From a virus, in the IMG/VR virus record IMGVR_UViG_3300027987_000266: a stretch of DNA of 64,000 nucleotides, one strand, 5' to 3'. Position numbers and translations under genes: made by a program. Shown here one piece after another: positions 46,767 to 48,739 of this stretch. The notes below the pieces were generated by a model. The model saw only the letters and a program-made list of their open reading frames with translations, searched no databases and had not been told where the DNA came from. The number at the start of each line of letters is the position of its first letter. The stretch's first letter is position 1.

Positions 46767-46840
46767 AGGGGACGGTGGGATTCGAACCCACGCACACGGT
46801 TTTGAAGACCGCTGCTCTAGCCAGGCTGAGCTACGCCCCC
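46767..46840 (-). tRNA. suppressor tRNA with anticodon UCA (reads UGA)
   Basis: GGGGGCG-TA-GCTC-AGCCTGGCTA-GAGC-A-GCGGT-CTTCAAA-ACCGT-GTGC-GTGGG-TTCGAAT-CCCAC-CGTCCCC. All four stems pair. Loop has U33, UCA at 34-36, A37. Confidence 0.7.
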
Positions 46841-47281
46841 AACAAACCGATGGCGGTGCGAATTCTGCTCGACAGCCGTTCTGATCGAATGGCAATTTGA
46901 GCAACGAACGTCGCATTTCTTGATTTCGGCCATCAGCTTTTTCACACTCGTGATCTTTTTCCTGTTTAAGTGGGCTGCAATCGTGAACAACTTGTCTTCT
47001 CTATGGTCGAACTCCAACGCACGGATGTCATCAAAACCACAGTCCACACAAGGGTGCTCGATCAGATATTGGCATATTGCGAGCCGAACCTCTTCGAGTA
47101 AATCATTGTTTCTTACAGCTTGCTTGGCAACATAATCCTCCCGATTGTCTTGATAGTGTTGATCTTTGTAGTCTTTCACGCACTGACGACATCGGGCTTT
47201 CCGTTGACCTTTGGCTTTGTTCTTCCAAGCGAATTCTTCTATGGGAAGGTCACGCTTGCATCTGCTGCATTGTTTCTTCAT
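46817..47281 (-). CDS. HNH homing endonuclease
   Basis: CSRCKRD...CRQC...HREDK...CSNCH motifs. The 3' end reads into the tRNA. Confidence 0.6.
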   Translation of the reverse strand: MKKQCSRCKRDLPIEEFAWKNKAKGQRKARCRQCVKDYKDQHYQDNREDYVAKQAVRNNDLLEEVRLAICQYLIEHPCVDCGFDDIRALEFDHREDKLFTIAAHLNRKKITSVKKLMAEIKKCDVRCSNCHSIRTAVEQNSHRHRFVGGVAQPG

Positions 47282-47331
47282 TACGGACTCCGAGCAAGGG
47301 TCTTCAAACCCTATCTTTGCTTGAAGTCCAG

Positions 47332-47411
47332 TGGGGGCGGAAGGATTCGAACCTTCGACGACACGATCTTGCGGGAAGACCGCCGCTCTAGCCAGGCTGA
47401 GCTACGCCCCC
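47332..47411 (-). tRNA. tRNA-like paralog of the UCA tRNA with an aberrant anticodon arm (identity undetermined; possibly a pseudogene)
   Basis: The first 27 nt match the 46767-46840 tRNA. Acceptor and T-arm (GAAGG-TTCGAAT-CCTTC) are perfect. The anticodon region GGTCTTCCCGCAAGATC forms a 6-7 bp stem with a 5-7 nt loop. Confidence 0.4.
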
Positions 47412-47966
47412 TTCGTCTCCATCAAGGTCCACGACATTGTCGGCATGAAGCCGTTTGAATTCCTCATACATCGGACAACCTTCGTTGTCCATTTGAGAGG
47501 CGATCTCTTTGAGCATGTGGTCCCAGCCGGGACGCTCGACCGCCAAGTGAGCGAGAGCCATCACAGTGGCCTGTCGTTGCTCTTCTGTGATGGTTATATG
47601 ATGAGATGACGACGTGAGGAAGTTATCCTTCGTATGATCGTCGCCAGTGAGTTGAATGTGTGTCGTGCCGAGGCATGAATCTTCGGACCTGTGCAAACGG
47701 ACGCCAGAGCTTCCGTGAATCGAGACCTCTTCTGCTGGACTGGCCCCAAATGCTTGAAGAGCATCAATGAGCTTGCCTACTGTGGTGCGTTTGATTGATT
47801 GGTCCATGACCTTCGTCTGATTGATTTTGTGTACCTCATCCGGCTCCCAGGTTACGTGACACTTCATGCAGATCATTTCGTGTTCGAACCCGACGCCGCG
47901 TCTCCACTGTCCTTTTCCTTCACACTTAGGGCAGCGATAAGGGTGTTGACTCATCCGCGTCCCCAA
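47388..47966 (-). CDS. hypothetical zinc-finger protein
   Basis: CPKCEGKG...CMKCH. The 3' end overlaps the tRNA-like gene. Confidence 0.45.
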   Translation of the reverse strand: MGTRMSQHPYRCPKCEGKGQWRRGVGFEHEMICMKCHVTWEPDEVHKINQTKVMDQSIKRTTVGKLIDALQAFGASPAEEVSIHGSSGVRLHRSEDSCLGTTHIQLTGDDHTKDNFLTSSSHHITITEEQRQATVMALAHLAVERPGWDHMLKEIASQMDNEGCPMYEEFKRLHADNVVDLDGDEGGVAQPG

Positions 47967-48223
47967 TACCTCGACCAGGATTCTTCAATTCTTGGAGTAT
48001 CGGTGTAGATCTCCAACTCCCGGTAATCAACCGGCTCGCAATTCCATCCTTGAGTGTCGCACCGATGATCACCCTCAACTGTATCAAATACTGTCCGCAT
48101 CCCCACGTTTAGGCCGCGAGCCACCTTTCGGACGGTCGGCCATGCGGTCATTCCTGATTGCAAGAAGAACCGTTCGGCGTAATTCTGAATTCGTTGTTCT
48201 AGCAGCATGGGGTGTTGTTTCAA
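47951..48223 (-). CDS. hypothetical protein
   Basis: 90-aa ORF. Confidence 0.45.
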   Translation of the reverse strand: MKQHPMLLEQRIQNYAERFFLQSGMTAWPTVRKVARGLNVGMRTVFDTVEGDHRCDTQGWNCEPVDYRELEIYTDTPRIEESWSRYWGRG

Positions 48224-48636
48224 GCGGTATCATGGTAATTGCTGATTATTTCGAAGGCTTTGTTGATTCGGGAGATGGTGCGTTCTCCGACGCCGTAAAG
48301 TCGTTTCCATTCGACGGTATGGAACCATTCGATGAATTCGTGGGTGGGGGCGGCTTTCATGCCTTCGTAGGAGGTCATGTCGGTGGGGTGTGTGATGTGC
48401 CAGGCTTTTCGGACGGCTTTACGGGCTCTACAGTCGTTGAGGGCTTTGAGGAAGTCTGCTGCGAAGTTGGTGGGGCCGCTGGTGATGTGGACGTGGACGA
48501 CTTTCTGAGTGGGTTTGGTGATGGCTTTTCGTGCGGTTCCGGGGAGTTTTCGGAGGTAGGGGCGGGTGTCGCCTTTGTCTCGTTCGAGTTGACCGGTGGT
48601 GGTGTCGAGGATTCCGAACCATGTTTCAGTAGCCAT
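48220..48636 (-). CDS. hypothetical protein
   Basis: Start MATETWFGIL. Confidence 0.45.
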   Translation of the reverse strand: MATETWFGILDTTTGQLERDKGDTRPYLRKLPGTARKAITKPTQKVVHVHITSGPTNFAADFLKALNDCRARKAVRKAWHITHPTDMTSYEGMKAAPTHEFIEWFHTVEWKRLYGVGERTISRINKAFEIISNYHDTA

Positions 48637-48666
48637 TGCTTCTGCCTTTAATTCTCTGTTGATAAG

Positions 48667-48739
48667 CCCTCCCACCAGGAGTCGAACCCGGAACCCTCGG
48701 TTTTGAAGACCGCTGCTCTGCCAGTTGAGCTATGGGAGG
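48667..48739 (-). tRNA. second tRNA with anticodon UCA (opal suppressor), distinct acceptor stem
   Basis: CCTCCCA-TA-GCTC-AACTGGCA-GAGC-A-GCGGT-CTTCAAA-ACCGA-GGGTT-CCGGG-TTCGACT-CCTGG-TGGGAGG-G. Confidence 0.65.

Follow-up and report, generated by a model that had tools for sequence, protein, structure and literature searches.

Two tryptophan-type opal-suppressor tRNA genes in an uncultured jumbo phage whose visible genes end mostly in UGA

Introduction

Why would a phage whose own genes end in UGA carry two tRNAs expected to read UGA as an amino acid? This question is raised by a stretch of 64,000 nucleotides (nt) from the viral record IMGVR_UViG_3300027987_000266 of IMG/VR (hereafter the window), which contains two tRNA genes with the anticodon UCA, here called t1 and t3. 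Suppressor tRNAs have been proposed as agents of stop-codon recoding in phages, and they also occur in phages without signs of recoding. An earlier note on this DNA had linked the two genes to TGA recoding or to suppression of host termination. t1 and t3 are phage suppressor tRNAs of an already known kind, and their descent from tRNA-Trp is well supported by sequence comparison. TGA is nevertheless the commonest stop codon in all the phage sequence examined, and the reading favoured below is that of a leaky read-through device.

The sequence examined amounts to ~82.5 kb, consisting of the window and 18.5 kb of flanks (9.5 kb and 9.1 kb) taken from near-identical contigs of JGI sample 3300027985, which are 99.98% identical to the window. 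A 32-kb contig adds 9.5 kb on the right of the window (L016), and a 111-kb contig, from which the left-flank locus L018 comes, shares the window's left 9 kb and runs on for ~100 kb. The genome is represented in this sample by contigs Ga0259481_10000192 and Ga0259481_10002801, and also in SRA run SRR7216773. Together with the window, the extents of these overlapping contigs indicate a genome of at least ~180 kb, and the source is an uncultured jumbo phage.

Structure of the two UCA tRNAs

Seven tRNA genes were found in the window by ARAGORN, all on the minus strand, and two of them carry the anticodon UCA, with spans of 46766-46840 (t1) and 48666-48739 (t3). The coordinates of the earlier note (46767-46840 and 48667-48739), together with its folds and stems, were recovered by ARAGORN and Rfam, whereas its strand was not, both genes lying on the minus strand. 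Against the general tRNA model RF00005 of Rfam (gathering score 29 bits), t1 scored 66.6 bits (E-value 2.8e-12) and t3 scored 59.7 bits (E-value 2.1e-10), each over the full length of the model (1-71/71), and both scores are above those of most other tRNAs of the same phage. The RNA of t1 reads GGGGGCG-UA-GCUC-AGCCUGGCUA-GAGC-A-GCGGU-CUUCAAA-ACCGU-GUGC-GUGGG-UUCGAAU-CCCAC-CGUCCCC-U, and that of t3 reads CCUCCCA-UA-GCUC-AACUGGCA-GAGC-A-GCGGU-CUUCAAA-ACCGA-GGGUU-CCGGG-UUCGACU-CCUGG-UGGGAGG-G. The minimum-free-energy fold was found with RNAfold to be a cloverleaf in both cases, with 7-bp acceptor stems, 5-bp T stems and variable loops of 4-5 nt.

The 7-nt anticodon loop, CUUCAAA, is common to t1 and t3, with U33, UCA at positions 34-36, A37 and A38. 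This placement was returned identically by two independent programs for both genes, RF00005 agreeing with ARAGORN on UCA, and the covariance model does not move the anticodon from where it had first been read. The anticodon stem of t1 (GCGGU/ACCGU) contains a G27.U43 wobble. The acceptor stem of t1 is GGGGGCG/CGUCCCC, followed by the discriminator U73, and that of t3 is CCUCCCA/UGGGAGG, with C1-G72 and the discriminator G73. Neither gene encodes CCA; a single C after the discriminator, without the full CCA, was observed at nearly every tRNA gene of the window and of the right flank. An intact 22-nt segment comprising the D stem and the anticodon arm (repeat D2) is shared by these two different tRNA backbones. 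The locus with t1 and t3 is also present in two other public assemblies (L040, 100% identity over 4.7 kb; L015, 99.98% over 15.5 kb), and because these copies are identical the UCA anticodon is not a sequencing error.

Descent and amino-acid identity

In a BLAST search of 50,697 phage records, the top-scoring matches of t1 were annotated phage tRNA-Trp genes, namely those of Phaeobacter phage MD18 (86% identity over 96% of the query), Gordonia phage Jace, Streptomyces phage Urza, Sinorhizobium phage Phosso and Caulobacter jumbo phages. The best-scoring matches of t3 were mycobacteriophage tRNA-Trp genes (91% over 79%) and Vibrio-phage tRNA-Trp genes, and its closest relative with a UCA anticodon lies on a 125-kb IMG/VR contig (L001). 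Three tRNA-Trp loci were fetched; the anticodon is CCA in all three by alignment (two are so annotated), and all three have G73. In the D arm and anticodon arm these Trp(CCA) genes equal t1 and t3 except at position 34 and the outermost stem pair (alignment A2). When the anticodon was removed, the 14 nearest of 93 unique tRNAs were, for t1 and t3 alike, Trp(CCA) genes or other UCA genes, with the exception of t2, the third tRNA-like gene of the locus; this comparison set spans 19 isotypes and is enriched in UCA tRNAs by the way it was collected, and its ~60 tRNAs of other isotypes never rank. That t1 and t3 are Trp-derived opal-suppressor tRNAs is well supported by these alignments, and since their nearest relatives without the anticodon are phage tRNA-Trp(CCA) genes, they are not tRNA-Sec. 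The phage's own tRNA-Trp(CCA), listed in the earlier note at 62818-62888 and confirmed by both ARAGORN and Rfam, is not close kin of t1 and t3: it has an atypical body with the loop CUCCAAC, A1-U72 and G73.

Which amino acid would the two tRNAs carry? Bacterial tryptophanyl-tRNA synthetase (TrpRS) recognizes G73 as a major determinant, along with C35 and A36. All three are present in t3, which is for this reason most likely charged with Trp by the TrpRS of the host. t1 has U73 instead, a base used by both GlyRS and CysRS, which leaves its amino acid uncertain: it may be poorly charged with Trp, or may carry Gly or Cys. U73, G1-C72 and G3-C70 of t1 are also found among the identity elements of bacterial tRNA-Gly. 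A search for exact tRNA matches in 185,579 genomes, made as a clue to the host, returned none.

UGA as a stop codon of the phage

Is UGA still a stop codon in the sequence seen? In a gene map based on self-trained codon scores, the 94 genes called in the window end in TGA (48 genes, 51%), TAG (24) or TAA (22), and the 51 best-scoring genes end in TGA, TAG and TAA in 27, 8 and 16 cases, respectively. TGA also closes 17 of the 28 JGI-called genes of the flanks, including those for LigA (761 aa) and RmlA/B/D-like proteins, and no internal stop was found in any of these 28 genes. Of 42 TGA stops, 14 share bases with the start codon of the following gene (ATGA or TGATG). Read in frame beyond the TGA, the sequence has a codon score below zero in 36 of 48 genes and near zero in most others; the score is clearly positive in only two cases, both of which are the next gene in the same frame after a non-coding spacer. 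From TGA to the next TAA or TAG the median distance is 120 codons, and a backup stop within 10 codons was found in 4 of 48 genes. A homologue of adenylosuccinate synthetase stops at TGA 11 residues past the end of its Pfam domain, and conserved genes in the window and flanks are intact under genetic code 11. Thus, recoding is absent from the 82.5 kb seen, which is not 'dual-coded' either, because backup stops after TGA are rare, and the recoding considered in the earlier note finds no backing in this sequence. The density of greedily called open reading frames (ORFs) under genetic codes 11, 4 and 15 was tried as a recoding test and replaced by the codon-score tests, because spurious long ORFs at 55% GC inflate every code and make the measure non-discriminating.

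A systematic scan of the window for coding segments bridged by TGA found no TGA-interrupted gene, as had been stated from the first reading, and returned only adjacent genes, a single pair of small zinc-ribbon ORFs and three shadows on the strand opposite long genes. Two bridged pairs, at 3863..2859 and 5953..4784, were rejected as ordinary neighbours with non-coding spacers, the second having two stops between its members. The zinc-ribbon pair (50262-50846, minus strand) consists of ORFs of 132 and 57 residues (aa) in one frame, split by TGA and four codons, and is the sole site in the window at which UGA read-through joins plausible coding segments that are not explained as separate genes. 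Programmed read-through at 50846..50262 was rejected as a candidate, the stop context TGAG being without distinguishing marks.

A neighbouring 174-aa ORF (50849-51373, minus strand) resembles the T4 Gp23 major capsid family (E-value 7e-12) in that family's N-terminal region alone and lies in frame with an upstream 527-aa ORF, from which it is split by a single TAG and one codon. A split capsid gene was considered from this Pfam match and rejected: the ORF ends in TAA and is kept at 172-173 aa in two other records. Nor is the ORF a complete capsid gene.

The partners expected of a code change were also sought. No family of aminoacyl-tRNA synthetases or release factors, and hence no TrpRS, RF1 or RF2, was found among 77 window proteins or among the precomputed Pfam marks of the flank genes.

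Occurrence of the UCA design elsewhere

Among 2.9 million IMG/VR contigs, 12 contain the sequence pattern GAGCNNNGGTCTTCAAAACC. Several of the 12 are 100-520 kb long, and several of the matches lie inside tRNA arrays beside a Trp(CCA) gene. A narrower pattern returned 16 loci from the JGI metagenome collection, most of them with the Trp-like UCA design. Similar UCA tRNAs carry G73, A73 or U73 as discriminator. One unrelated contig pair (L026 and L027) has only a truncated fragment of a UCA tRNA, and among the contigs whose loci were compared with the window nothing was shared beyond the tRNA itself. The Trp-like UCA design is thus rare, yet it recurs in large phages. Among nine IMG/VR loci of at least 5 kb with similar tRNAs, three (L005, L007 and L010) have an ORF density that is 14-19 points higher when code 4 is applied, which is a crude measure.

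The third tRNA-like gene and the intervening reading frames

Between t1 and t3 lies a third tRNA-like gene, t2, which was not in the account of the locus given by the earlier note and was found here with ARAGORN and Rfam (Table 1). t2 matches t1 at 97% identity over its 5' 37 nt and at 83% in its 3' end (repeats D1 and D3). Relative to t1, t2 carries an insertion of CCGC after C35 in the anticodon loop and two substitutions, of which A to G lengthens a new stem and C to U replaces a G-C pair by G.U. The anticodon arm is consequently replaced in the RNAfold structure by an 8-bp stem with a 5-nt loop, and it is left unaligned by Rfam. ARAGORN names t2 'Arg(CCG)' solely through breakage of the D stem and distortion of the D arm; when a 7-nt loop is forced, t2 has C33 and C37, and its discriminator is A73. 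Judged by its predicted fold, t2 is no canonical decoder, and could be either a dead copy (pseudogene) or a non-decoding tRNA-like RNA with another use.

Table 1. Positions of the tRNA genes and of the reading frames near them in the window
Feature	Position	Strand	Basis
t1, tRNA(UCA), 74 nt	46840..46767	minus	Rfam RF00005 and ARAGORN
HNH homing-endonuclease-like gene, 154 aa, between t2 and t1	46817..47281	minus	phrog_2255, E-value 1.3e-28
t2, 80-nt tRNA-like paralogue of t1	47411..47332	minus	Rfam (50 bits), ARAGORN, RNAfold
ORF of 188-192 aa with N-terminal CxxC...CxxC zinc ribbon	47388..47966	minus	188-aa call in Logan assembly
Two ORFs, 151/138 aa and 90/85 aa, between t3 and the 192-aa ORF	47951..48675	minus	ORF calls
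t3, second tRNA(UCA), 73 nt	48739..48667	minus	Rfam RF00005 and ARAGORN
Second HNH endonuclease, 188 aa, beside the tRNA array	60210..60776	minus	Pfam HNH and HNH_5; phrog_2118, E-value 3.7e-18
tRNA-Trp(CCA) of the phage	62888..62818	minus	ARAGORN, Rfam
Start of the main tRNA array: Tyr(GUA), Trp(CCA), Ser(GCU), weak 65-nt hit, Cys(GCA)	62725..63883	minus	ARAGORN, Rfam

The description of the cluster as rich in homing endonucleases was borne out in part. Two clear HNH genes are present, one between t2 and t1 and one beside the main array, whereas none of the remaining ORFs between the tRNAs could be assigned to a family with significance: the ORF of 188-192 aa has no Pfam match and two marginal PHROG matches to families without an assigned function (E-value ~0.005), and the two ORFs next to t3 have none in Pfam or PHROG. 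The HNH gene overlaps the 5' half of t1 by 24 nt (46817-46840), and the 192-aa ORF overlaps t2 in the same way (47388-47411). Both share the tail GGVAQPG* in their last 8 codons and end at a TAG in the tRNA D loop. With the stops inside t1 and t2, RNase P processing would therefore cut both mRNAs 5' of the stop codon.

Between t2 and the HNH gene, the plus strand carries a 20-nt stretch (47292-47311) that repeats, inverted and imperfectly (85%), the segment of D stem and anticodon arm present in t1 and t3 (GAGCAAGGGTCTTCAAACCC) and forms a small hairpin; it could be due to chance or be the remnant of a homing site. No theta or hepatitis-delta-virus-like ribozymes or other RNAs were found beside the tRNAs, and a scan for promoters and terminators gave nothing beyond shuffled expectation.

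Homing endonucleases are known inside phage tRNA clusters, an example being SegB of T4. The locus shares with such clusters an endonuclease gene between tRNA genes and a duplicated tRNA segment on both sides; it differs in that the endonuclease here is of the HNH and not the GIY-YIG family, and its homing activity is putative.

The favoured reading

What, then, might t1 and t3 do? We consider it about an even chance (a probability of roughly 0.5) that the pair serves as a leaky, competitive read-through device and not as an agent of genome-wide UGA reassignment, because TGA is a true and dominant terminator without backup stops in all of the ~82.5 kb. The tRNAs would be functional opal suppressors of natural origin that arose from a bacterial-type tRNA-Trp by a C34-to-U change. 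They would be transcribed together with the surrounding same-strand genes, and host enzymes would trim them and add the missing CCA. Following probable charging of t3 with Trp by the host and of t1 with one of the amino acids named above, both would decode UGA in competition with RF2, and probably also UGG by U34 wobble. If dedicated in-frame UGA targets exist, they would be small in number and located beyond the sequence seen. The ~82.5 kb also contains ~16 tRNA genes, one gene for transfer-messenger RNA (tmRNA) and one for a ribosome recycling factor; the latter two products would help to handle ribosomes running past stops.

Several points weigh against this reading. Efficient suppression would lengthen about half of the phage's proteins, and the keeping of two suppressor genes is hard to reconcile with the phage's own UGA stops unless suppression is weak or timed. 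The anticodon stem of t3 (GCGGU/ACCGA) has a G27.A43 mismatch at its top, and U73 of t1 fits bacterial TrpRS poorly. No diverged relatives with the same locus were found that would show selection on the anticodon. Finally, no bona fide structural or lysis genes are present in the ~82.5 kb seen, which is less than 45% of the genome.

A further reading, which we regard as speculative and distinctly unlikely, is that the two suppressors, perhaps carrying two amino acids (G73 versus U73), constitute with tmRNA and ribosome recycling factor a module for reprogramming termination. Such a module could serve a timed stop-to-sense switch of UGA in a late block, or deliberate read-through of host UGA stops. 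Read-through in the host might disturb the UGA-dependent frameshift that autoregulates RF2, and so amplify suppression.

Alternative explanations

Could the unseen part of the genome use another code? Under a block-wise change to code 4 or 25, suppressors made from the standard-coded part would translate TGA-containing structural and lysis genes in a late block. We rate this idea, which goes back to the earlier note, as possible, if somewhat unlikely. It is the sole role of phage suppressor tRNAs with experimental and comparative support (PMC12636597; 10.1101/2022.06.29.495998; PMC10746230), and it fits the presence of two different UCA tRNAs, the small share of the genome seen without a true structural gene, and the gain of code-4 ORF density at three of the nine longer loci, crude as that measure is. 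In block-recoded phages, however, early blocks are usually 'dual-coded' (10.1101/2022.06.29.495998), whereas here TGA is the main terminator without backup stops. Code-11-compatible phages of code-25 hosts are also 'dual-coded' (PMC10746230), and because backup stops are lacking the present phage is not code-25 compatible. Known UGA reassignments occur in low-GC genomes (10.1101/2022.06.29.495998), unlike this one at 54.6% GC; ~99.5% of jumbo phages are classed as using the standard code (PMC13037316); and a suppressor tRNA with this anticodon (Sup-TCA) is carried by only 15% of predicted code-4 phages, so that suppressor tRNA and code are only loosely coupled (PMC11210395). A further point against a late recoded block is that neither TrpRS nor RF1, the 'code-change' partners, was found in the ~82.5 kb.

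It is quite improbable, in our estimate, that t1 and t3 are chiefly anti-defence or supplementary Trp decoders, which would read UGG through U34 wobble and escape a putative host anticodon nuclease directed against tRNA-Trp(CCA), with suppression as a tolerated side effect. Several VapC toxins of Mycobacterium tuberculosis cleave tRNA-Trp, the bodies of t1 and t3 resemble those of standard bacterial tRNA-Trp while the phage's own Trp(CCA) is atypical, and the array is rich in isotypes known as nuclease targets (Lys, Tyr, His, Ser, Met and Cys). Phage tRNAs have been proposed to replace host tRNAs cut by anticodon nucleases, with changes in the anticodon loop evading VapC, PrrC and colicins (PMC10264068). 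The same study, however, indicates that phages usually avoid tRNAs that are cleaved in the anticodon itself rather than mutate it (PMC10264068), and here the change is in the anticodon and not in flanking loop bases, which alters decoding. Moreover, the phage already has a Trp(CCA) gene.

That the genes are non-functional or decaying copies, left by duplication driven by a homing endonuclease with a chance C-to-T change at position 34, seems very improbable. Defective tRNA copies do occur at the locus, as t2 proves; the HNH gene sits between t2 and t1; the stem mismatch of t3 and the unusual discriminator of t1 would suit decay, as would the truncated UCA fragment in L026 and L027. Against this stand the 22-nt segment kept intact on two different backbones, scores for t1 and t3 that exceed those of most other tRNAs of the phage, and the fact that the Trp-like UCA design recurs, often in large arrays, in 12 contigs of IMG/VR and the majority of 16 metagenome loci.

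Bacterial tRNA-Sec is ~90-100 nt long, with an 8/5 (or 9/4) acceptor/T-stem architecture and a long variable arm. A selenocysteine identity, for which only the UCA anticodon and the automatic ARAGORN label 'SeC' (given because of the anticodon alone) speak, is practically untenable, as the earlier note had argued from size: t1 and t3 are 73-74 nt long with 7/5 stems and 4-5-nt variable loops, match RF00005 end to end as their best Rfam family, and are not accompanied by selA, selB or selD homologues among the window proteins.

The phage genome around the locus

The window has a GC content of 54.6%, ~80% of its called genes lie on the minus strand, and most are without known function. Its marks of a phage are the two HNH endonucleases, the Gp23-like ORF, PHROG matches and the tRNA arrays. 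Past the right end of the window (L016, 1-9458), the main array continues with eight more tRNAs, namely one His, two Ser, three Met and two Lys; the His tRNA has the unusual anticodon AUG. This flank also encodes the tmRNA (Rfam 146.7 bits, tag AKHSFAMAA), the ribosome recycling factor (PF01765), a protein with a cold-shock domain and dTDP-sugar (RmlA/B/D-like) proteins. Within the window, the weak tRNA-like match of the array (63734-63798, minus strand; 65 nt, 30.9 bits) directly follows tRNA-Cys(GCA); it has a truncated D arm and a GCA-type loop, scores just above the gathering score and was not called by ARAGORN.

A 955-aa protein (38305-41172, minus strand) is homologous to the major vault protein of eukaryotes (MVP shoulder domain, E-value 1e-21). 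In the phage collection it matched only LR756500, LR756501 and LR756503 ('uncultured phage', 462-735 kb), at 35% identity; these records are probably huge-phage genomes of PMC7162821, the text of which lists no accession numbers. More than 3,000 relatives were seen in metagenomes, huge-phage genomes and Myxococcota-like metagenome-assembled genomes, and an identical protein is on record on an 82.7-kb JGI contig, while no relative was found in IMG/VR. Two loci with major-vault-protein neighbours (L013 and L014) are without tRNAs, and a flanking 209-aa protein had no homologue except itself. A megablast of the region 44000-52000 did not find this genome in the phage DNA collection, and the exact sequences of the right end of the window and of the far end of L018 are absent from IMG/VR.

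The homologue of adenylosuccinate synthetase (54185-55570, minus strand) scored 93 bits against a cut-off of 402 bits for the PurA equivalog. It matches phrog_1211, 2-amino(oxy)adenylosuccinate synthetase (PurZ-type), with an E-value of 6.7e-40, a match that hints at the possibility of 2-aminoadenine DNA. A MoxR-like AAA ATPase (557 aa) adjoins a DUF2201 metallopeptidase/VWA protein (463 aa) at 12822-16894 on the minus strand, and the window further encodes GroES (Cpn10), several methyltransferases and proteins with ARPP-1/ARPP-2 domains.

Comparison with known systems

How do t1 and t3 compare with known UGA-reading tRNAs? In the tRNA-Trp(UCA) of Mycoplasma and mitochondria and in the tRNA-Trp opal suppressors of Escherichia coli, a C34-to-U change in a tRNA-Trp body allows reading of UGA as well as UGG; the Mycoplasma and mitochondrial systems lack RF2, and the E. 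coli suppressors are laboratory mutants. t1 and t3 share with them the change itself and the loop CUUCAAA with A37 and A38, whereas the carrier here is a virus that ends its own genes with UGA.

In experiments, phage tRNA-Trp(UCA) genes that have either G73 or A73 inserted Trp at UGA when combined with a phage TrpRS (PMC12636597), and code-4 phages were reported with RF1, a UCA suppressor tRNA (Sup-UCA) and TrpRS (PMC10746230). The present tRNAs resemble these (PMC12636597; PMC10746230) in being phage-borne, with a Trp-type body and a UCA anticodon, among other phage tRNAs; t3 has G73, as in AP1, and insertion of Trp at UGA would be expected from its sequence. They differ in that no TrpRS or RF1 neighbours them, TGA is the commonest stop codon, and no in-frame TGA was seen in the visible genome, which is GC-rich and not crAss-like and has a second copy with U73.

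Among cultivated jumbo phages for which no evidence of recoding was reported, phage G carries Sup-UUA (PMC12484599) and Ralstonia phage RsoM2USA carries Sup-CUA (PMC8504454). Shared with both are the jumbo genome, a large tRNA set and a suppressor for the phage's own stop codon; unlike in those phages, the suppressor here is of the UCA (opal) type, with two distinct genes and a defective third copy. Finally, the code-25 tRNA-Gly(UCA) of SR1/Absconditabacteria and Gracilibacteria (Campbell et al., 2013, as cited in PMC10746230) shares the UCA anticodon, whereas the body of t1 is Trp-like in sequence and its pair 2-71 is G-C, not C-G.

Significance of the locus

The locus is a clean example of its kind: a phage that itself relies on UGA termination carries two intact opal suppressors, with tmRNA and a ribosome recycling factor nearby. 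UGA-decoding tRNAs with unusual acceptor ends (C1-G72 with G73; U73) could be of interest for work on genetic-code expansion. If a TGA-containing late block exists, opal recoding would be extended to a GC-rich environmental jumbo phage. If there is no such block, the phage would provide a test system for a non-recoding role of suppressor tRNAs, be it read-through, interference with the host or evasion of nucleases.

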